Below, piece after piece: positions 265-15,458 of a DNA stretch of 24,068 nt (its first letter is position 1; every line of letters starts with the position of its first letter). The notes under the pieces were generated by a model, which was not told the origin of the DNA, searched no databases, and saw only the letters and a program-made list of their open reading frames with translations. This DNA comes from a virus (Duplodnaviria; Heunggongvirae; Uroviricota; Caudoviricetes). The stretch covers positions 1-24,068 of the IMG/VR virus record IMGVR_UViG_2778261544_000011; one strand, written 5' to 3'. Position numbers and translations under genes: made by a program.

Positions 265-1161
265 TCAGATGAATGGTGAAACAATAATTTCCACGCGCTT
301 ATAATTAGGATTGTCTTCTCCGTTATCCAGATACTGACGTAACAGCAGTTTTTCCGCTGCGGCTCTTAACGATACGGGGACTACAATAACAGTAGGCACG
401 ATTCCCAATGGTTCACCGCTACTTCCCTTAACGGATAACATCCCGTCGTACACTTCATTAAATGTGGTTTCATTCAGTGTATCCCATGATGCCGCTGCGC
501 ATTGCCACATTGCATATCCAACGTTAAGACGCCCATCAACACCAAACAGAAAACGATTATTCAGAAACACATCAGTAGCGCCGGAATCAGTAACAGAAGT
601 TACAGCCATTGGACGACGAACTTGATAAATAAAAGGTTTCAATCCTTGACTACCATCAAATAAGTACCATAACGGCGTTGCACCTGCGTTTTTTTCTGGA
701 TTGCTTCCATAGAGGTTTGAATAAACGCCTTCACCATTAGGATGGTCAGTAGCAAAGAAGTTGTGCCCGTCAATTCCTTCTGATAAGTGCCCTTTCTTCA
801 TAGCTTCAAACAGTAACTTATCAGGGAATGCAGCTGCTTTGCGCCCGTACTGTTCAAAAACCATTGAATACTTACCATAATCATTATCTTCAAAATCCTC
901 ACGTTTAATTTGAATGCTGCTTTCAAACGTTTTATTTTTCAGAAAATAATCACGGGTTGACAGTGATTTTAACTGTCGGTCGTTTAACCACTCTTTGATT
1001 TCCGGGAAATCTTCGAGGAAGCCATAAGCACTAACTGCCGATGAAGACGTTACTTCTGAAGCAATCGTTGGATGTACAGGATTGTAGGCTTTTTTTCCTG
1101 ATTCAAACCTGGCATTAAAAGCGATAGTAGCATCAGCAATTACACAATTAATATCTTTCAT
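265..1161 (-). CDS. Mu-like prophage major head subunit (gpT-like)
   Basis: 298-aa ORF; sequence recalled as resembling Mu-like gpT major capsid proteins; lies directly downstream of an I-like protease gene with a small overlap, the Mu head-gene order. Confidence 0.6.
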   Translation of the reverse strand: MKDINCVIADATIAFNARFESGKKAYNPVHPTIASEVTSSSAVSAYGFLEDFPEIKEWLNDRQLKSLSTRDYFLKNKTFESSIQIKREDFEDNDYGKYSMVFEQYGRKAAAFPDKLLFEAMKKGHLSEGIDGHNFFATDHPNGEGVYSNLYGSNPEKNAGATPLWYLFDGSQGLKPFIYQVRRPMAVTSVTDSGATDVFLNNRFLFGVDGRLNVGYAMWQCAAASWDTLNETTFNEVYDGMLSVKGSSGEPLGIVPTVIVVPVSLRAAAEKLLLRQYLDNGEDNPNYKRVEIIVSPFI

Positions 1162-1972
1162 TTTCTTTTCCTAAAGCTATCAAATAGTCTTCTTCGCTTA
1201 CACCTGTAATGCGGCAAACAGCCAGTTGCGATTCAGTAAGCGTTCTCGGGGGTTCTTTACCTTTTACACTTACAGCCCTAGCAAAGTGTAAAAAATTACT
1301 CGTCGATTTTTCCTGCATATCAGCAAACTTCCTGAATGCATTTTCTCCAACACTTGAACACATGGACAGAAGAATATTCCGCTGGGCCGGACAGAAAACG
1401 GCTTTTTCGATATATTCATTTACAATCTGACTATGTTGTTCAGCTTGTCTTTTATTTAACGCTGTCAGCACTTCTTCAAGTGAATTAATCTCCTCCATGT
1501 TAAGTGCCAGTGCGATTTTGCTAATCGTTTGCTGAGTATTTAGTGCCGTTAGTTTTAGATTTGGTTTATTCGTTAACGCCACGCTAACGAGTTCCAGTAT
1601 TTCACCATCCTGAGAATGACGGAAAGCCGGTGAAAGGTATCTGTATTCACGGGATGTGATGAAATCTATTGCTCGTGGGGTCCATTCAACTTTTCCCCAT
1701 ACAGAACCATCATTACGAACAGCAACGTCATTAATCCATCCGGCGGCAGGAGCCTCGCCACCTTTGGGGGCAGTAACTTCTGTAGAATGTTCATAATCAA
1801 CAACCAGCGACATCCCCCGACCAGAAAACGCCTGTTTAATGCTCTGCGGATCCTTGAGCGTCCAGTGCCTTCCGTCACGCCCTTTAATTTCTGGTCCAGC
1901 TGGTAACAACTCAACCCATTCAGGAGGAGTCTTATCACCCGACAAATCAGTACATAAAGCAATTACGTTCAT
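1148..1972 (-). CDS. Mu-like prophage protein I-like (head maturation protease/scaffold family)
   Basis: ORF 1148-2005; the codon at 2005 is TTG, so the preferred start is the ATG at 1972 preceded by AGAGGAA; resemblance to Mu-like protease I family from memory; overlaps the gpT-like gene. Confidence 0.5.
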   Translation of the reverse strand: MNVIALCTDLSGDKTPPEWVELLPAGPEIKGRDGRHWTLKDPQSIKQAFSGRGMSLVVDYEHSTEVTAPKGGEAPAAGWINDVAVRNDGSVWGKVEWTPRAIDFITSREYRYLSPAFRHSQDGEILELVSVALTNKPNLKLTALNTQQTISKIALALNMEEINSLEEVLTALNKRQAEQHSQIVNEYIEKAVFCPAQRNILLSMCSSVGENAFRKFADMQEKSTSNFLHFARAVSVKGKEPPRTLTESQLAVCRITGVSEEDYLIALGKENERY

Positions 1973-1997
1973 TAGTTCCTCTGTTATTGAGTTAACC

Positions 1998-2038
1998 CCC
2001 TTCAAAACCCCTTCAAAAACGCCGTAGCGCCTTCAAAG
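1998..2038. repeat. Three direct copies of CC(C)TTCAAA(A) across the start region of the I-like gene
   Basis: cccttcaaaa (1998-2007), cccttcaaaaa (2008-2018), gccttcaaag (2029-2038) read directly from sequence. Confidence 0.5.
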
Positions 2039-2200
2039 ATATGAAGGTAAGGTGTTTGCCCATCATGAGCCAAAACACAGCCGTAATGCGTTTGAGGCAA
2101 TTCACATTTGTTAGGTGCGAAATACCCCTGATTCTATATTCATGCATTAAGTGTTTTGCTGTCAGCATCATTAGCAAATGTTCATTGCTTATCATTAACG

Positions 2201-2929
2201 TTAATTTAAGCCATAATCGCCAATGAGCGCCCTTACATGTTTTATTGTTGTGTATATCGATTTACCAGACTCTCCATACTTAATAGCCAGTTCAGCAGGA
2301 GACATAACATAACTATCTGCATACATATCTGCTTTTTTTATTATTCTACTCAGTGAGTCGGCCTTAGGTAAATAAAACTGGATTCCGCCTACAACTTCCA
2401 GAAATGCTTTTGTTGCAATAAATGTTTTTGTCGTGCCATTTACTTCTTCTTGTGGGTCTACTCCAGTTTTTTTTAATGCCGCCTCAATAGCCCCCATAAT
2501 CATAGTCACACTTTCTGGAAGAATCTTTGTTTCTTTTCTCAATAAAGCGATAATAGCAGTTTTGCGGATATGCTTAATCGGACCACCACTAAAAAAATCC
2601 GGTTCAAATTTCATTGCGTCAAGATAGAATGTTTGTTTTCCGCAAATAGACATAAATTCATTAAAGAGAGCGGTGCCTGCGACATTACAAAAAACATCAA
2701 TTTCGCACTCGCCACTCTGTTCATGTTTCACTGCGTGAAATTGTTTTTCAATCAATTTCACATGCTCACTGACTTCATTATAATTACATGCATATCCCAT
2801 TTTACTGATATAAGACATAACATCACAGATATCACGAGAAAAGCATGAAGAAACAATGAATTTATTTATCGCTGTAATATCATTGTGTGGCGGCGTTAAC
2901 ATGAGATTTTTAAAGGTTTGTTTAGCCAT
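2201..2929 (-). CDS. Hypothetical protein, AT-rich orphan gene (243 aa from the ATG at 2929)
   Basis: ORF 2201-3058; internal ATG at 2929 is preceded by GAGAAG; visibly AT-rich relative to flanking phage genes; no family recognised. Confidence 0.5.
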   Translation of the reverse strand: MAKQTFKNLMLTPPHNDITAINKFIVSSCFSRDICDVMSYISKMGYACNYNEVSEHVKLIEKQFHAVKHEQSGECEIDVFCNVAGTALFNEFMSICGKQTFYLDAMKFEPDFFSGGPIKHIRKTAIIALLRKETKILPESVTMIMGAIEAALKKTGVDPQEEVNGTTKTFIATKAFLEVVGGIQFYLPKADSLSRIIKKADMYADSYVMSPAELAIKYGESGKSIYTTIKHVRALIGDYGLN

Positions 2930-3007
2930 TATCTTCTCGCTTAAGCTTTTGCATATACCTGTGTACATTTGAGCGCGATGCGCGGTAGCCAATGCTTGCA
3001 GCAAACT

Positions 3008-3047
3008 TAACGTTATCCGCAATGTTACGATAACGATTATTGCGGAT
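3008..3047. promoter_or_regulatory. Nested inverted repeats (TATCCGCAAT...ATTGCGGATA and CGTTATC...GATAACG), operator-like, upstream of the orphan gene
   Basis: Perfect 10-bp inverted repeat separated by about 15 bp, roughly 80-120 bp upstream of the 2929 start codon; not followed by a T-tract on either strand. Confidence 0.3.
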
Positions 3048-3189
3048 ATGGGAATCAAAAATAAGTTTATCCCCGATTGTGATAAAACATAATTTTTTCA
3101 AAAAAGAACCATCTCCGTTTGCTCCGGATGCTGTGAGATTACATGGGAATTTTGGGGAAGATAGATTTACCGTTTTCCATGAAGTATGC

Positions 3190-3194
3190 ACGGA
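3190..3194. repeat. 5-bp target site duplication ACGGA (left copy) flanking IS2
   Basis: acgga at 3190-3194 immediately outside the IS2 terminus at 3195; identical copy at 4526-4530. Confidence 0.85.
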
Positions 3195-3205
3195 TGGATT
3201 TGCCC

Positions 3206-4111
3206 CTATATTTCCAGACACCTGTTATCACTTAACCCATTACTGGCCTGCTGCCGTAGATATTCCCGTGGCGAGCGATAACCCAGTGCACTATGCGGAT
3301 GCCATTCGTTATAATGCTCGAACGCCTCTGCAAGGTTCTTTGCTGCCGTTAACCCGTCTGGTTTAGGCATGACACTGATGTAGTCACGCTTTATCGTTTT
3401 CACGAAGCTCTCTGCCATGCCGTTACTCTCCGGACTCCGCACCGCCGTGTTCTTCGGTTCAAGCCCCAACATCCGGGCAAACTGCCGTGTTTCATTAGCC
3501 CGGTAGCATGAACCATTATCCGTCAGCCACTCTACTGGAGACGCCGGAAGCTCGTTGCCGAAGCGGCGTTCCACCGCTCCCAGCATGACGTCCTGTACTG
3601 TTTCACTGTTGAAGCCGCCCGTAGTGACCGCCCAGTGCAGTGCCTCACGGTCACAGCAGTCCAGCGCGAACGTGACTCGCAGTTTTTCTCCGTTATCACA
3701 GCGGAACTCGAACCCGTCAGAGCACCATCGCTGATTACTTTCTTTCACAGCCACTCTGCCGGTATGTGCCCGTTTCGATGGCGGTACAGCGAGTTTTCGC
3801 TCAAGCAACAGCGCATTCTGGCGCATGATCCGGTAAATACGTTTGGCATTGATCGCAGGCATACCATCAAGTTCGGCCTGTCTGCGAAGCAGCGCCCATA
3901 CCCGACGATAACCATATGTGGGCAGCTCTCCGATAACATGGTGTATACGGAGAAGCACATCCGTATCATCTGAGTGACGGCTGCGGCGACCATCTTTCCA
4001 GTCATCGGTTCGTCTGAGAATGACGTGCAACTGCGCACGCGACACCCGGAGACAACGGCTGACTAAGCTTACTCCCCATCCCCGGGCAATAAGGGCGCGT
4101 GCGCTATCCAC
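3206..4111 (-). CDS. insD: IS2 transposase OrfB (InsD)
   Basis: 301-aa ORF recognised as IS2 InsD from memory; DDE integrase-type sequence; overlaps the upstream insC frame as expected for IS3-family frameshifting. Confidence 0.9.
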
Positions 4112-4434
4112 TTTTTTGCACGCCCATATTCCACGGCTTCTTTAAGGAGTTCATTTTCCATCGTTTTTTTGCCGAGCAGGCGCTGGAGTTCTTTAATCTG
4201 CTTCATGGCAGCAGCAAGTTCAGAGGCAGGAACGACCTGTTCTCCTGCGGCCACAGCAGTAAGACTTCCCTCCTGGTATTGCTTGCGCCAGAGAAATAAC
4301 TGGCTGGCTGCCACACCGTGTTGCCGGGCTACAAGGGAGACCGTCATTCCCGGTTCAAAACTCTGCTGAACAATAGCGATCTTTTCCTGTGTAGTACGCC
4401 GTCTGCGTTTCTCCGGTCCTAAGACATCAATCAT
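4069..4434 (-). CDS. insC: IS2 transposase OrfA (InsC), helix-turn-helix protein
   Basis: ORF 4069-4479; start placed at [12 protein letters not shown] (ATG at 4434), giving 121 aa as in IS2 InsC. Confidence 0.85.
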
Positions 4435-4525
4435 CTGCTCTCCAATGACTAGTCTAAAAACTAGTATTAAGACTATCACTTATTTAAGTGATATTGGTTG
4501 TCTGGAGATTCAGGGGGCCAGTCTA

Positions 4526-4530
4526 ACGGA
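4526..4530. repeat. 5-bp target site duplication ACGGA (right copy) flanking IS2
   Basis: acgga at 4526-4530 immediately outside the IS2 terminus at 4525. Confidence 0.85.
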
Positions 4531-4552
4531 TATGTGCAGCAAGTGGTAGGCA

Positions 4553-4577
4553 ATAAAAAAGCCGCACGGGGCGGCTT
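4553..4577 (-). terminator. Rho-independent terminator directly downstream of the gp27-like gene
   Basis: Minus-strand reading: AGCCGC-cccgt-GCGGC followed by TTTTTTATT, starting about 8 nt after the stop codon at 4586. Confidence 0.5.
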
Positions 4578-4585
4578 TGGGATAG

Positions 4586-4948
4586 TTAATGTTTTTCGAG
4601 AAACTCTAACACTCGTTCAAGTCTGGTCCCTAATCTGTCTATCTTTGATTCAAGTTTATCAAGTCTCCTGTGCAGTTCGGCATGCTTATAACGGCGAGAC
4701 ACTTCTCCATGTTTCCTGGCTACCGAAACAGCATTGATTAAACTAATCGCATATCTGTTCAATCCGGTTTTGGATATGACCAGTTCTGAACACCCGGCTA
4801 TTACTATATCCTGATTTATGATATTTAAAATTTCAGCCTGAGAATACTTACGCGAGATAAGCATTTTATCAAGCTTCCTTTTTGTCTTTTCAGGCAGTAA
4901 TTCAACTTTTGAAAGTCTGCCTCGTTTGTTTTTTGTTTGATTTTCCAC
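4586..4948 (-). CDS. Mu gp27-like (DUF3486-type) protein, putative small terminase/DNA-binding packaging protein
   Basis: 120-aa ORF; N-terminal [18 protein letters not shown]... pattern resembles Mu-like gp27 family proteins (recalled, unverified). Confidence 0.4.
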
Positions 4949-4972
4949 TTACACCCTCACAAAAAAACATGA

Positions 4973-5254
4973 TCACTCATCACTTTGTTGGTCACAATAT
5001 TCTACTAACCGAGACATGCATTCAATAAGAGCAGGTGCTGATTGTAAGAACCCTGCCAATCGGGATATTTCCTCACCAGAATAACCACATCCCCCTCGCA
5101 ACTGATTTTCTTCCAGAAACCTACCAACAAAAGTAATCCCATTCAGTAAACTTTCTCTATGCCAGTCAGCATCAACACGTAAACCCCAGCGGCTTTCTTT
5201 GTCAGGCATGCTATTCGCGACTGCTTTCATTGACTCAAGCAAATGATTACGCAT
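4973..5254 (-). CDS. Hypothetical small protein (93 aa)
   Basis: ORF 4973-5335; ATG at 5254 preceded by strong AAGGAGG; start overlaps the stop of the upstream gene (ATGCGTAA). Confidence 0.45.
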   Translation of the reverse strand: MRNHLLESMKAVANSMPDKESRWGLRVDADWHRESLLNGITFVGRFLEENQLRGGCGYSGEEISRLAGFLQSAPALIECMSRLVEYCDQQSDE

Positions 5255-5444
5255 GGCGCACCTCCTTAGCCGGGACGCGGCCAGCAAACAGCAACACAAA
5301 ATCACGCGCCAGCATACGGCGGGCGGTTGTTTCATCGGGTGCGTTGACGGATTCGCGGTGTGGGCGGTCGTTCAGGTCGGAGCGGCGAACGACCAGAAAG
5401 TGAAAGGTAAATTCAGGGTGTAACGGGGTTGGGGTCGTAGCCAT
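5247..5444 (-). CDS. Hypothetical small protein (65 aa)
   Basis: ORF 5247-5636 (first codon GTG); ATG at 5444 preceded by strong AAGGAGG; upstream part of the ORF lacks an SD. Confidence 0.4.
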   Translation of the reverse strand: MATTPTPLHPEFTFHFLVVRRSDLNDRPHRESVNAPDETTARRMLARDFVLLFAGRVPAKEVRHA

Positions 5445-5990
5445 TCTGGCAGCCTCCTTGTACTGGTTTAAGGAGTCACCGCCTGAGTTGCTACGCTCAT
5501 AAATGGCGGTGACGCTGGCGGGGGTAGCAATACCGGCGTACAAGGAAACCGGCCAGCCTTTCGGCTGCCCCACCAGCGCCACCATAGATACAGTGCGGGC
5601 CTTGCCGCTGGGTATGGTTGCGCGATGGCATGACACAAAAAAAGACGCTGGGCGCGTCTGTGTCGCCTTGTACTGATTAAACGGGTTGCTACGCCCGATA
5701 CTCGATTCTGCCGAGTACTTTTATAAAATATCAACAACAGAATGAGTTGGCAAGTGTCTGTACGCATCAGCTATACAATGCATAAAAATACAACACACAA
5801 AGCTCATTACACATGAATTATCACACCAATTGGTTAATATCAATAAGCGACAATCATTGTATATGATACTGATTTTTATCATGTTTTACACATAAACTAG
5901 ACATTAACTGAGTTAATTTCATTGTTAATTGATATGATCCACGATTAAGAATGGCTACTTTTCGCCAAGGAATTTGCTACCCCTTACCAA

Positions 5991-6372
5991 TTATCTTGAA
6001 TAAGATAGCTTAACATACACAAATTATTTTCTTTTACCCAATACGCCACACCACCAGAGATGCGAAAAATTCACTTTAAAATCAATTTGATACACAAAAA
6101 GCAAAAACGAACACACAAAGGAAAAGATTTGTTTTTCCAGAAAAGACAAAAGAAAGCACTCCTGGATGTTCCAAGCGGCAAAGTCAAGGGCTATAGCGAA
6201 TTTGAAGCGCTTTAAAACATTCAAAACACACATCACCATTATCTTGATTGTTTTTTCGATTTTGGATAGTTGCGCTATTTGTGACCACGTTTATCTTGAA
6301 TAGTGTTATCCGTAAGTTGTTGATACCCGGCTATTCCCGTCTTTACTAATCTCTTCCCGCTTATCTTGAATA
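5991..6372. repeat. Four direct copies of TTATCTTGA(A/T)T(A) in an AT-rich intergenic region
   Basis: Copies at 5991-6002, 6239-6250 (ttatcttgattg), 6291-6302 and 6361-6372; the last abuts the stop of the GT-A-like gene. Confidence 0.6.
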
Positions 6373-6374
6373 AA

Positions 6375-7208
6375 TTACCTAGTCATATGAAGGATTTTTA
6401 CTGCAGCGTTGTTCCAGGTGACCTGATGGTGAATGCGTTTATGGCTGGCACCCATCAGTGAGATTTTTACGCACGACGGCGCATACATGACGGAATAAAA
6501 ACTTTTAACGTAGGTTCCGGAATCCAGATACAGCTCGGTCATTCCGCCGCTGTTTTTCTGCGTCTGTTTCTGCCCTAACTGGACAGCACCGATCGTCATA
6601 AACAATTCACCACGGCGACCGAGATTCGTGTACGTATTCACATCCTCGTTAATGCGCCCCATGAATGAGAACGGTCGATCAACCGAACAGATAAAGCTGT
6701 TCATTGCCTTGCGTTTCACCCATGAAGCATGGCCGCCATTGTCACCAAGAAAATCCCCGCCCTGCGACATAGCGATGGAAAGCGCAGGAATTGATTCGTA
6801 ATACGCCAGCATTTCAGAAAGGATCGCATCCAGTTTCCTTATCGGAAAATAGGCCTGGTCATAGTTGCGATCCACCCGAAACTGAAACTCGTGATAATCA
6901 TCATCGAGCTGAATGAAGTATTTACACCCGACCTTTTTTGCCAGGTCGAAACAGGCATTACGGGCGTAAAAAATTGAGCGACGATCACCGAAATTATCGG
7001 CTTCGTCAAAACGACTGGCGATTTCGGCTTTGGAAAACACCAGCACCTGTTCACCAAATTCTGCTATGTACTGATGCCGGGTTTTATCTTCATCATCAAC
7101 GACGATAAAAATTTTCCCTGTATAGCCAGCACGACGCAAAGTCCGGTAAGTCAGAACTTTGTCCGGTCGCCCATGAGTCAGAATAAAGGCGCAAAAATCA
7201 TCACGCAT
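6375..7208 (-). CDS. Nucleotide-diphospho-sugar transferase (GT-A)-like fold protein, function unknown
   Basis: ORF 6375-7226; ATG at 7208 preceded by GGGGAGGAGG; N-terminal FILTHGRPD...IFIVVDDED and later IQLDDDY resemble GT-A/NTP-transferase DxD-type motifs; no C-terminal transmembrane segment; start abuts the ParB-like stop (ATGCGTGA). Confidence 0.55.
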   Translation of the reverse strand: MRDDFCAFILTHGRPDKVLTYRTLRRAGYTGKIFIVVDDEDKTRHQYIAEFGEQVLVFSKAEIASRFDEADNFGDRRSIFYARNACFDLAKKVGCKYFIQLDDDYHEFQFRVDRNYDQAYFPIRKLDAILSEMLAYYESIPALSIAMSQGGDFLGDNGGHASWVKRKAMNSFICSVDRPFSFMGRINEDVNTYTNLGRRGELFMTIGAVQLGQKQTQKNSGGMTELYLDSGTYVKSFYSVMYAPSCVKISLMGASHKRIHHQVTWNNAAVKILHMTR

Positions 7209-7989
7209 ATTCCTCCTCCCCGCCATGCATGATCTCCACCATGCACTGCGTCATCCGGACAAAACCATTTTCAATAGCCTGCTGATAATCAATGATCACC
7301 AGTGCCGACTCTTCGAAAAGCGCCTGAACTTCAGCGGGCGCATGAGCGTAATAGTCCGCAATTCTGCTGAAATTAAATACTGTGTGGCGTTCTGCCGCAC
7401 ACAGGAGGAATTTTTCGATATCAGGCTCAAGGGACGCCGAACGTATCCGGCTGACCAGCTCCTGAGTTTTCGTATCGTCGTACAGTTCGCCGATATCCGG
7501 TTTATCGCCCGACGGCTCATAAACAGGCGTATCAATTTTCGTCGTGTACGGCTCCTCCTCATTTCCTGTACCTGGCAAAACATCCGTCAACAGTTCATCA
7601 ATTTCTGTCGGGCTGAATCCTGTCAGGGAGATATCAAAATCAGCATTGATTAGGTCCGACAGCTCCATCCGTAACAGATCTTCATCCCAGCCAGCATTCA
7701 TCGGCAGGCGATTATCTGCCAGGCGGTACGCCTTTTTCTGCTCATCCGTCAGGCCAGACAGAACAATGACCGGAACAGAATCCATTTTGAGCATTTCAGC
7801 CGCCATAACACGACCGTGACCTGCAATAATTTCGCCCTTTTCATCAATCAGCACCGGATTAGTCCAGCCGAATTGCTTAATGCTTTCTACCAGTTGTGCC
7901 ACCTGCTCAGGGCTGTGTGTCCTGGCATTGTGTGCATACGGAGACAGTTCTTGTAACGGGCGATAGACGATTTTCAATTTCTCGCTCAT
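7201..7989 (-). CDS. ParB-like nuclease domain (ParB/Srx fold) protein
   Basis: 262-aa ORF; N-terminal region with ParB N-domain-like motifs (…LSPYAHNART…GHGRVMAA…); ATG at 7989 preceded by GCGAGG. Confidence 0.7.
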   Translation of the reverse strand: MSEKLKIVYRPLQELSPYAHNARTHSPEQVAQLVESIKQFGWTNPVLIDEKGEIIAGHGRVMAAEMLKMDSVPVIVLSGLTDEQKKAYRLADNRLPMNAGWDEDLLRMELSDLINADFDISLTGFSPTEIDELLTDVLPGTGNEEEPYTTKIDTPVYEPSGDKPDIGELYDDTKTQELVSRIRSASLEPDIEKFLLCAAERHTVFNFSRIADYYAHAPAEVQALFEESALVIIDYQQAIENGFVRMTQCMVEIMHGGEEEYA

Positions 7990-13974: not shown

Positions 13975-14907
13975 ATGCACAGCGTTAATTTCTATTCATT
14001 CCGCGTCTTGACCCATAAAGGCAGTCGAGCCAGCAAAAAACTTAATGAATTGGGTTTAAGTAATAAAAAAACGGCATATGAACTTTTTGTTGATTATTTT
14101 ACTCTATATAAAAACACCCCCATCGAGTTTGGCGTATCCAAAACTAAAATATCTCTGGAACAACACGCTAAACTTCACTTTGATAACTCAAAAAAAATTA
14201 TATATGGTTATGTAAAAGTTGGGAAATATGGAGAAAGCAGTGAAATAAAAGATGTAAAACTCAAAAAAATCCACTATAGGACAACTGCTTATGATGTAAC
14301 ACTCAAAGAACGTTATATTTTAATATACCTACCAGACGCCCTTGAAGAAGGAATTATTGCATTCCACTCTTGCGATAATATTTCTGCTCGAGGTGTCCTT
14401 TCTGATTCTATCACTGAATATCTAAAAAACAAATTTCAACTCGAAGCAAGAATCAATCCATTACATCATAAGAAAATCCCTCAATATATTCTCAATTCCG
14501 AATTAAAACAAATTAAGGCTCAAGGATATAAAGCACCAAAAGACATTGCTGATTCCTTTGGTCAAAACAAAACAAACATCAAGACAGACTTAATAATAAA
14601 AGCAAACGATGGCATGTTCGGAAGTTTCAGAGATTTAAGAAACAAGAATATAGGAAACATCATTGAGATTATTGAAGATAAATGTGATGCAATAAAAGTA
14701 AGCTTACAACTCGGCAGTCGGACTGTCGTTTTCAATTATGATACCATACTAAAAAAAGGAATTTCCGCAGAGTTAGATGATAATGATCTAAAAATCGACC
14801 CATTAACAGGCATACCTGATCTAACAGCACTTCATGACACGATAAAAAACCTTTCTAATGATATATTGTTAGAACTGCATAGCGGAAACAAAGGGGTGAT
14901 TATATGA
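13975..14907 (+). CDS. Hypothetical soluble protein (310 aa), RexA-like candidate, first gene of a two-gene cassette
   Basis: AT-rich ORF opposite in orientation to the flanking phage genes; ATG preceded by AAGGA; N-terminal NFYSFRVLTHKG weakly recalls the RexA N-terminus (unverified). Confidence 0.6.
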   Translation: MHSVNFYSFRVLTHKGSRASKKLNELGLSNKKTAYELFVDYFTLYKNTPIEFGVSKTKISLEQHAKLHFDNSKKIIYGYVKVGKYGESSEIKDVKLKKIHYRTTAYDVTLKERYILIYLPDALEEGIIAFHSCDNISARGVLSDSITEYLKNKFQLEARINPLHHKKIPQYILNSELKQIKAQGYKAPKDIADSFGQNKTNIKTDLIIKANDGMFGSFRDLRNKNIGNIIEIIEDKCDAIKVSLQLGSRTVVFNYDTILKKGISAELDDNDLKIDPLTGIPDLTALHDTIKNLSNDILLELHSGNKGVII

Positions 14908-15458
14908 ATAAAATAAATGTACTGGGTGTAATAATAAAACACTACAAAACAATGTCAGATCAGCGTGGAACAATGTTGATGAGCGACATTATCGTACATT
15001 TTATTGTTCCGTTATCTCTTTCTTTCGTTCTGTGCTGGACATACGGAATAATGAAACCGGCAATTGCTTCCGTCTTTGTTAACTTCGGGGCTATTACAAC
15101 AGCACTATTAATGAGTGCAGTAATAATGATTTATGAACAAAAACAAAAAACCATCACTAAGATATCAGACATAATTGAAGGAAACAAATCCCGAGACAAA
15201 TTGATATCATTAAACACTAACAAAACCATATATGAGCAGTTATGCCACAACGTCGCTTATGCAATATTAACTTCAATAGTATTGGTTATATTTTCAGTGA
15301 TAATATATTTCCTGCCTGACAATGCAGTGGATTTAATGAAATGGTATTTTCGCGCACCTGCATATATTGTTAGCTTTTTAGCCTATACATCCTTTTTTAT
15401 CACTGTTATAACGTTCTTAATGGTAATAAAAAGATTTAGCACAATTTTAGATAATTGA
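14904..15458 (+). CDS. Integral membrane protein with four predicted TM helices (184 aa), RexB-like candidate
   Basis: ATGA start/stop overlap with the upstream gene; AGGGGTG ahead of the ATG; four hydrophobic segments (about residues 26-48, 53-77, 117-137, 150-175). Confidence 0.6.
   Translation: MNKINVLGVIIKHYKTMSDQRGTMLMSDIIVHFIVPLSLSFVLCWTYGIMKPAIASVFVNFGAITTALLMSAVIMIYEQKQKTITKISDIIEGNKSRDKLISLNTNKTIYEQLCHNVAYAILTSIVLVIFSVIIYFLPDNAVDLMKWYFRAPAYIVSFLAYTSFFITVITFLMVIKRFSTILDN

Follow-up and report, generated by a model that had tools for sequence, protein, structure and literature searches.

The 24,068-nucleotide stretch of viral DNA analysed here (the window; Caudoviricetes, IMG/VR record IMGVR_UViG_2778261544_000011) carries on its minus strand two overlapping genes, one for a ParB-like protein and the other for a glycosyltransferase of the TAGT (TET-associated glycosyltransferase) family. 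The reading we favour, with confidence and doubt in about equal measure, is that the pair constitutes a two-subunit glycosyltransferase, expressed late, whose probable substrate is phage DNA that has yet to be packaged. Both open reading frames (ORFs) were found on the minus strand, at the positions given in the initial annotation (Table 1).

The transferase matched TAGT (Pfam PF20691) over residues 8-222 with E = 7e-37 and 127.7 bits against a cut-off of 27.5, and phrog_842, annotated as a beta-glucosyl-HMC-alpha-glucosyltransferase (HMC, hydroxymethylcytosine), over residues 1-270 with E = 4e-102. The TAGT family takes in the T2/T6 beta-glucosyl-HMC glucosyltransferase, the base-J glucosyltransferase (JGT) and GREB1. 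In the AlphaFold2 (AF2) model, the GT-A (type A glycosyltransferase fold) core had a predicted local distance difference test (pLDDT) score of 85-96 over residues 1-60 and 81-110, and Foldseek searches produced viral TAGT proteins as the top matches (E = 1e-17) and, from the PDB, SpsA, glycogenin, LARGE1 and similar GT-A enzymes; a PDB sequence search with the TAGT profile gave no match. The initial annotation had described GT-A- or nucleoside triphosphate (NTP)-transferase-like motifs and suggested that the pair targets nucleic acids. The GT-A fold was borne out by Pfam, AF2 and Foldseek, and the family into which the enzyme falls is one of DNA glycosyltransferases, not an unrelated characterised one. 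The NTP-transferase reading was rejected: sugar-nucleotidyltransferases are only generic, Rossmann-like GT-A neighbours in the PDB, and the sequence family is unambiguously TAGT.

The two motifs singled out at the time, IVVDDED and QLDDDY, are indeed present, and their residues D38, D41 and D102-D104 are invariant among 16 homologues. So are R14 and E188-D189, which with D102-D104 form an R...DDD...ED motif in which the residue after ED is Val, not Tyr/Phe; the motif R...DDD...ED[YF] has been described for phage GT-A DNA glycosyltransferases that act on 5-hydroxymethylcytosine (5hmC)-containing DNA, and for JGT (Pyle et al. preprint). The back-translated third motif, NEDVNTY, served as the pattern with which relatives were recovered in collection scans. 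The enzyme is 277 amino acids (aa) long in the window, 310 aa in intact Escherichia coli relatives and about 285-290 aa elsewhere.

The two genes are joined in the manner expected of translational coupling, as had been proposed. Direct reading of the minus strand across the junction gives ...GGGGAGGAGG AAT ATGCGTGA, i.e., a Shine-Dalgarno sequence followed by an 8-nt overlap, ATGCGTGA, with the ATG of the transferase (7208-7206) lying within the last codons of the ParB-like gene. The start at ATG 7226 in the ORF list was rejected in favour of 7208, because all homologues, which begin MRDDFC, and the RefSeq annotation of relatives use the latter. The overlap of start and stop is no peculiarity of the window, since it was retained in 45 of 48 diverse loci, where it ranged from 4 to 23 nt and was most commonly 8 or 11 nt. 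Upstream of the pair, promoter prediction gave nothing of the sigma-70 type.

The ParB-like protein, which is 97% identical to an intact protein of E. coli SK6988, was correctly assigned to the ParB/Srx fold in the initial annotation. Its match to Pfam ParB_N (PF02195) is marginal (29.2 bits against a cut-off of 26.3), its match to phrog_620 is strong (E = 6e-90), and a PDB profile search reached Noc and ParB at E of about 4e-5. The N-terminal ~140 residues of its AF2 model matched structures of ParB, Noc, PadC, KorB, Srx and SerK in Foldseek. The label "nuclease" that had accompanied the fold assignment found no support here. In an alignment of 22 sequences drawn from several phyla, N21, G57 and N93 of the ParB domain were invariant and R60 was at least 90% conserved.

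What had been overlooked is that the conserved element of the partner lies elsewhere, in a linker motif and a C-terminal domain. The linker (aa 137-170) is predicted to be disordered (AF2 pLDDT <50), and yet within it the same 22-sequence alignment showed Y148, P155 and Y157 to be invariant and position 149 to be Thr or Ser; in a second alignment, to which an archaeal virus and a distant Porphyromonas phage were added, the motif Pro remained invariant and both Tyr were at least 90% conserved. The C-terminal domain, for which there was no Pfam match, keeps the signatures AAxRHxxF, IAxYY and E-x-SALVIID across phyla. Mean pairwise identity was 53% for the transferase and, within the partner, 31% for the ParB domain, 29% for the helices, 35% for the linker and 50% for the C-terminal domain; constraint on the partner is thus strongest outside its ParB domain. 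A query made of the motif and the C-terminal domain produced 1197 clusters (at 50% identity) with E<=1e-3, 1013 of them with E<=1e-10, and the module was almost always found at the C-terminus of proteins of 250-300 aa.

The N-terminal 140 aa of the partner, in turn, matched phage fusions of ParB to a DNA methyltransferase (phrog_498, E = 1e-51; PADLOC MTase_II, E = 1e-38). These 140 residues are all that matched, and no methyltransferase domain was found in the 262-aa protein. An anti-phage defence system was rejected as an interpretation, given that PADLOC produced this N-terminal match alone and nothing for the transferase.

The pair across phages and hosts

The ParB-like gene lay directly upstream of the transferase gene in 87 of 87 loci (80 viral contigs, two from E. 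coli and five from metagenomes), and again in all 44 testable loci of a scan of one genome per species. The bacterial carriers in that scan ranged over Proteobacteria (Enterobacterales, Thiotrichales, Hyphomonadaceae), Bacteroidota, Firmicutes (Veillonella, Clostridia), Chlorobiota, Acidobacteriota, Opitutia, Thermodesulfobacteriota and Saccharibacteria, and an archaeon was also among the carriers. Together with the 45 overlaps in 48 loci, these counts place the pairing far from chance. The co-occurrence check proposed in the initial annotation was thus run, and far from being confined to this locus, the pair was present wherever it was looked for. Cultured viruses have it too: the Lactobacillus phages c5, in which it forms ORF1 and ORF2, the first genes after cos, and phi jlb1, Nocardia phage NTR1, and the haloarchaeal virus HHTV-2. 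Homologues of the transferase also occur in phages LL-Ku and phiLdb, and in Porphyromonas phage005b the pair persists at a transferase identity of 27%. The two proteins have diverged in a correlated way (Mantel r = 0.61, p = 0.001). Within E. coli, the 1.8-kb segment that holds the pair was covered to at least 80% in 889 of 5426 complete genomes and was partly present in 1551.

The neighbourhood was surveyed at 40 diverse loci, three genes on each side, and statements about it refer to the 25 commonest of the 28 downstream and 37 upstream families. The genes downstream of the pair are usually terminase genes (the small and large subunits, TerS and TerL, followed by the portal gene), and these include four TerL families (Terminase_6N, Terminase_3, GpA and TerL_ATPase); the genes upstream vary.

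Two exceptional arrangements are informative about the parts of the module. In a metagenomic sequence (P0372), transferase, ParB domain, helices, a YTRDIVLPIYEP motif and C-terminal domain follow one another in a single chain of 534 aa, in the reverse of the usual gene order. In the 191-kb Vibrio phage pv27 (L134 5459-6888, OR413349.1), the gene upstream of the transferase encodes 139 aa that hold the linker motif and the C-terminal domain alone, and no ParB domain was found in the 12.8-kb locus. The pv27 transferase has an N-terminal extension of ~40 aa, and its pair lies among primase, exonuclease and helicase genes, not beside a terminase. Stand-alone versions of the motif and C-terminal domain, of 128 and 134 aa, also exist.

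Some other variants were encountered along the way. In a metagenome-assembled genome (MAG) of Hyphomonadaceae (L126 2614-6161, JANRIP010000063.1), the partner is followed by a 564-aa fusion of TAGT with a domain like that of class I S-adenosylmethionine (SAM) methyltransferases, for which the Pfam matches are weak, and then by a second TAGT, an expanded cassette that suggests the build-up of a methylated di-saccharide. In a Faecousia MAG, a second, short protein of 190 aa with ParB_N only is encoded directly downstream of the transferase (L099 8875-9447), and the usual partner and the transferase are 44 nt apart instead of overlapping. The E. coli copies of both genes (e.g., P0007, P0202, P0207, P0219 and P0232) are often chimeric or truncated, with in-frame fusions to fragments of Lom/Ail, NlpC/P60, terminase or tail-fibre genes, and ynaK is a RefSeq pseudogene in some strains; the slot appears to be a hot spot for recombination.

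Candidate acceptors

We infer a physical complex, with DNA as its acceptor and a role for NTP. The basic transferase (median isoelectric point, pI, 8.9) and its acidic partner (pI 4.4), whose charges are complementary, would be the two subunits of a single enzyme, encoded at the start of the late/packaging operon, and since their genes are translationally coupled they would be made together. The partner's motif and C-terminal domain would bind the transferase and activate or position it, the ParB domain, where present, may add NTP-dependent dimerisation or clamping, and the transferase would occupy the place of the missing DNA-binding domain, as has been proposed for ParB-dependent thymine dioxygenases. 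Such a complex would move a sugar from a nucleoside diphosphate (NDP)-sugar to replicated phage DNA shortly before it is packaged, and the sugar would presumably shield the DNA in the next host or serve as a mark on it. DNA is the likeliest target on account of the enzyme family, the homology to methyltransferase fusions, the replication context in pv27 and the constant position before terminase genes. The characterised phage members of the TAGT family act on DNA (Pyle et al. preprint; PMC13216743), and ParB was proposed to direct modification enzymes during packaging by Iyer et al. 2013, as cited by Burke et al. (PMC8256090). We found no functional study of the pair in the literature, although Iyer et al. 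2013 may already depict the operon.

A number of observations weigh against this reading, the most serious of which concern the acceptor. The characterised DNA-acting relatives of the transferase need 5hmC, 5-hydroxymethyluracil (5hmU) or a sugar already on the DNA. Searches of the window, of the ~29 kb of the SK6988 prophage that are annotated, of the flanking families surveyed at the 40 loci and of the complete c5 genome (31.8 kb, 50 ORFs) revealed no enzyme of the TET/JBP type, no hydroxymethylase of the thymidylate-synthase type and no cytosine methyltransferase; in c5, the unannotated ORFs of at least 100 aa also gave no match to a dioxygenase or ThyS. Canonical DNA thus has no hydroxyl of the type on which all characterised DNA-acting TAGTs work. 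About 65% of glycosyltransferase (GT)-containing contigs have no neighbouring precursor enzyme, and those without a neighbouring 5-methylpyrimidine dioxygenase (5mYOX) or ThyS were considered less likely to be involved in DNA hypermodification (Pyle et al. preprint). In 288 of 753 phage genomes, "solitary" TAGT homologues of undefined function were reported (PMC13216743). The partner, with a net charge of -26, is strongly acidic and in this unlike a DNA binder, and GREB1 is a member of the TAGT family that glycosylates protein. As for the ParB domain, mutation of NTP-binding residues had little effect in the dioxygenase system (PMC13229309), and the pv27 locus, as judged from its sequence, shows the domain to be dispensable. 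The AF2 monomer models, finally, are only moderate (pLDDT of 65 and 62 for the two proteins), with the C-terminal third of the transferase poorly predicted.

One way to reconcile an enzyme of this family with the lack of a recognisable precursor source is that the module puts the sugar directly on DNA with no hydroxymethyl-pyrimidine, i.e., on a canonical base, on the backbone or on a DNA end made by packaging, the enzyme being delivered by a hitherto undescribed adaptor, made up of the motif and the acidic helical domain, which may sit on a ParB NTP switch. We put this forward tentatively, as a possibility that is well short of probable. If true, DNA would be glycosylated after replication in a way that is new, and the module responsible would be carried by about one in six complete E. 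coli genomes as well as by dairy and gut phages and archaeal viruses.

That the module glycosylates a protein, either the partner itself through the Tyr/Thr of its motif, by a glycogenin-like self-priming, or another protein, of phage or host, to which the partner brings the enzyme, is in our judgment rather unlikely, even though it would dispense with the problem of the missing acceptor. GREB1, which O-GlcNAcylates Ser/Thr of the oestrogen receptor ER-alpha, provides a precedent for a protein target of a TAGT domain, but all characterised phage TAGTs act on DNA, and the N-terminal module of the partner is the one that is fused to DNA methyltransferases. The invariant or near-invariant hydroxyl residues in the disordered linker (Y148, T/S149 and Y157) could be self-priming sites, and glycogenin is among the GT-A structural matches of the transferase, albeit as a generic match; a docking peptide would account for a conserved linear motif just as well. 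The adjacency of the pair to virion-assembly genes would suit a structural protein as target, but in pv27 the pair is in a replication cluster, and because terminase and portal families differ among the carriers, no common phage protein target is evident. More improbable is that the transferase acts on a 5-hydroxymethyl-pyrimidine or sugar already on DNA whose precursor comes from an unrecognised phage or host enzyme. The transferase is homologous over its full length to T-even-type enzymes (23-26% identity over residues 5-263 to those of Aeromonas T4-like phages), the R...DDD...ED motif is common to it, to the 5hmC-DNA GT-A enzymes and to JGT, thousands of 5mYOX-like contigs have no Pfam annotation (O'Toole et al., PMC13229309), and the second TAGT and SAM-methyltransferase fusion of the Hyphomonadaceae cassette resemble glycan-building hypermodification clusters. 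Set against these points, no candidate for the hidden enzyme emerged from the window, the SK6988 prophage, c5 or the listed families of the six flanking genes at the 40 loci, and hosts as different as Haloarcula, Lactobacillus and E. coli share no common pathway of such a kind.

We consider it very improbable that the two proteins have separate, ordinary roles, the one as a ParB-like partition, regulatory or nuclease protein and the other as a lysogenic-conversion enzyme that modifies a cell-envelope polymer. Public records do label the first gene "chromosome (plasmid) partitioning protein" or "transcriptional regulator", but the protein matched no helix-turn-helix (HTH) family (its aa 137-170 being disordered), it scored below the cut-off of the full-length NCBIfam ParB signature (TIGR00180, 38.7 against 58.45), and no ParA family was present among the families listed for the window ORFs and the flanking genes of the 40 loci. 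A ParABS partition role was rejected on these grounds and on those of the net charge and the late-operon position, in keeping with the initial annotation, which had argued that the function was not plasmid partition. TarP is one of the prophage GT-A enzymes known to modify teichoic acid (Pyle et al. preprint), and the slot between the lysis and terminase genes often carries accessory genes. Against this stand the obligate pairing, the overlap of the genes and the existence of a fusion protein; in addition, the pair occurs in c5 (with 50 annotated ORFs and no integrase) and in an archaeal virus, the envelopes of the hosts are unrelated, and the pair lacks a predicted sigma-70-like promoter of its own.

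The rearranged prophage in the window

The window derives from a Rac-like lambdoid prophage of Escherichia, recognisable by recE, replication genes, a DUF1133/Q-like gene, tRNA-Gly and tRNA-Thr, and having two holins and a GH108 endolysin. In intact relatives, a 69-aa ORF and then the TerS, TerL and portal genes come after the pair, and the position between lysis and packaging regions given in the initial annotation holds for these relatives. It does not hold for the window, where Mu-like, P4-like and IS3 remnants adjoin a transferase gene truncated at its 3' end. The window transferase is identical to the 310-aa SK6988 protein over 274 of 274 residues, after which come three foreign codons and the end; DNA homology to the intact relatives likewise ends at about 6388. 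The conserved core of the family, as judged by homologue alignment, ends only ~5 residues past the break, so the catalytic core of the window transferase is intact.

Abutting the truncated 3' end is ~690 bp of AT-rich non-coding DNA (5700-6388) with four copies of (C)TTATCTTGAATA (at 5988, in the 6234-6247 region, at 6288 and at 6358) and a 35-nt direct repeat at 5983-6017 and 6353-6387. It resembles an arm or an iteron region belonging to an integrated element, with an Ash-family gene beside it, and none of the 5426 complete E. coli genomes had a close match to positions 5700-6387. Beyond it, 265-5636 is a mosaic of degraded mobile elements with no terminase or portal, from which it follows that the Rac-like prophage lost its packaging module; the prophage is rearranged and probably defective. 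Elsewhere in the window, in the early region of the prophage, two overlapping ORFs of 310 and 184 aa (13975-15458) run in the opposite orientation, on the plus strand; they had no Pfam or PADLOC match and are a candidate accessory or defence cassette.

Table 1. Positions in the window of the gene pair, its domains and motifs, and the adjoining mobile-element remnants.
Feature	Position	Strand	Basis or remark
ParB-like partner gene, 262 aa	7201..7989	-	ORF list; RefSeq name in relatives ynaK or "ParB/Srx family N-terminal domain-containing protein"
ParB/Srx nucleotide-binding domain, aa 1-100, with N21-x-R23, G57-H-G-R60 and N93	7690..7989	-	AF2, alignment
Acidic helix-helix segment, aa 101-136	7582..7689	-	AF2 helices 103-134; charge -10; mean pairwise identity 29%
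Linker motif Y148-T-T-K-I-D-T-P155-V-Y157-E-P159 (YTxKIxxPxYEP)	7513..7548	-	Alignments
Acidic helical C-terminal domain, about aa 172-255	7225..7473	-	AAERHTVFxF..IADYY..E.SALVIID..AIENG; best-conserved part of the partner
Coupling junction	7201..7221	-	Shine-Dalgarno GGGGAGGAGG 7212-7221; TAGT ATG 7206-7208; ParB TGA 7201-7203
TAGT-family GT-A glycosyltransferase gene, 277 aa	6375..7208	-	Pfam, PHROG, AF2, Foldseek
IVVDDED, first acidic motif of the GT-A nucleotide-binding half, aa 35-41	7086..7106	-	V36, D38 and D41 invariant
QLDDDY, DxD metal/NDP-sugar motif, aa 100-105	6894..6911	-	D102-D104 and Y105 invariant, 16 homologues
NEDVNTY, "ED" catalytic-site motif, aa 187-193	6630..6650	-	N187, E188, D189, V190, T192 and Y193 invariant
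Rearrangement junction	6375..6388	-	Last three codons (MTR) and stop foreign; 36 normal 3' codons missing
Ash-family gene	5247-5636		
Mu gp27 fragment	4586-4948		
IS3-family element	orfB 3206-4111, orfA 4069-4479		
285-aa ORF with C-terminal Mor domain	2201-3058		
Mu protease I	1148-2005		
Mu-type major head gpT	265-1161		

Comparison with known systems

Neither protein family is new, and the year 2026 brought the demonstration of a ParB-like protein that activates a phage DNA-modifying enzyme; the function of the cassette itself has not been described. The closest parallel is that same activator, in the phage thymine dioxygenase system 5mYOX176/ParB176, in which the ParB homologue is needed only on double-stranded DNA (O'Toole et al., PNAS 2026, PMC13229309), and the predicted 2:2 complex puts the dioxygenase where the DNA-binding domain of ParB would be. 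The partner described here is built like ParB176, in that a nucleotide-binding domain, a short structured part, a disordered linker and a domain at the C-terminus follow one another, with no DNA-binding domain and with the gene of its enzyme adjacent, and in both systems terminase genes are frequent neighbours. The enzyme, however, is a TAGT glycosyltransferase and not a 5-methylpyrimidine dioxygenase, and the linker has an invariant motif, whereas that of the partners of ParB-dependent dioxygenases was described as non-conserved.

The T2/T6 and 5mYOX-associated GT-A enzymes belong to the same Pfam family and PHROG as our transferase, with full-length homology and the same R...DDD...ED motif. 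They differ in that their substrate is hydroxymethylcytosine (hmC) or glucosyl-hmC, produced by dedicated enzymes that the same phage encodes, whereas no precursor pathway was found here, and in that the partner here is obligate, whereas none of ParB type is reported for them in the literature cited. Fusions of phage ParB to DNA methyltransferases (phrog_498, PADLOC MTase_II) are closely similar over the N-terminal ~140 aa, and both they and the pair are enriched in prophages. A DNA methyltransferase is a frequent fusion partner of ParB folds in phages (PMC12704722), and Bce_0392 of B. cereus is an example of such a fusion, as cited in PMC5512222. In the fusions, the methyltransferase is part of the same chain; here, the ParB module is followed by the motif and C-terminal domain, and the glycosyltransferase is separate.

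GREB1 and JGT are eukaryotic members or structural relatives of TAGT, and RefSeq names the E. coli transferase "GREB1-related"; JGT uses 5hmU made in DNA by JBP, GREB1 modifies protein, and a ParB-like partner is described for neither in the literature cited. In DpdA/DpdB, a ParB-like NTPase with the ParB/Srx fold is an accessory to an enzyme that modifies a DNA base or the backbone. DndB is another ParB-like NTPase linked to DNA modification (mentioned in PMC12704722). The partner enzymes and chemistry of Dpd and DndB are unrelated to those of the pair, and they reside in host defence islands, as opposed to the phage late operon occupied by the pair.

With carriers in many bacterial phyla, in haloarchaea and among industrial Lactobacillus phages, and with more than 1000 motif-plus-domain clusters at 50% identity, the cassette is very common. 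Once found, its acceptor would account for hundreds of phages flagged as having an unexplained "solitary TAGT", might bring to light a modification of DNA or protein that is new and bears on phage-host conflict, and would put to the test the idea that ParB-type partners serve DNA-modifying enzymes as loaders in general. Set beside the systems above, the cassette is best regarded as a very widespread variant of the theme of ParB-assisted DNA modification, with a new adaptor element.

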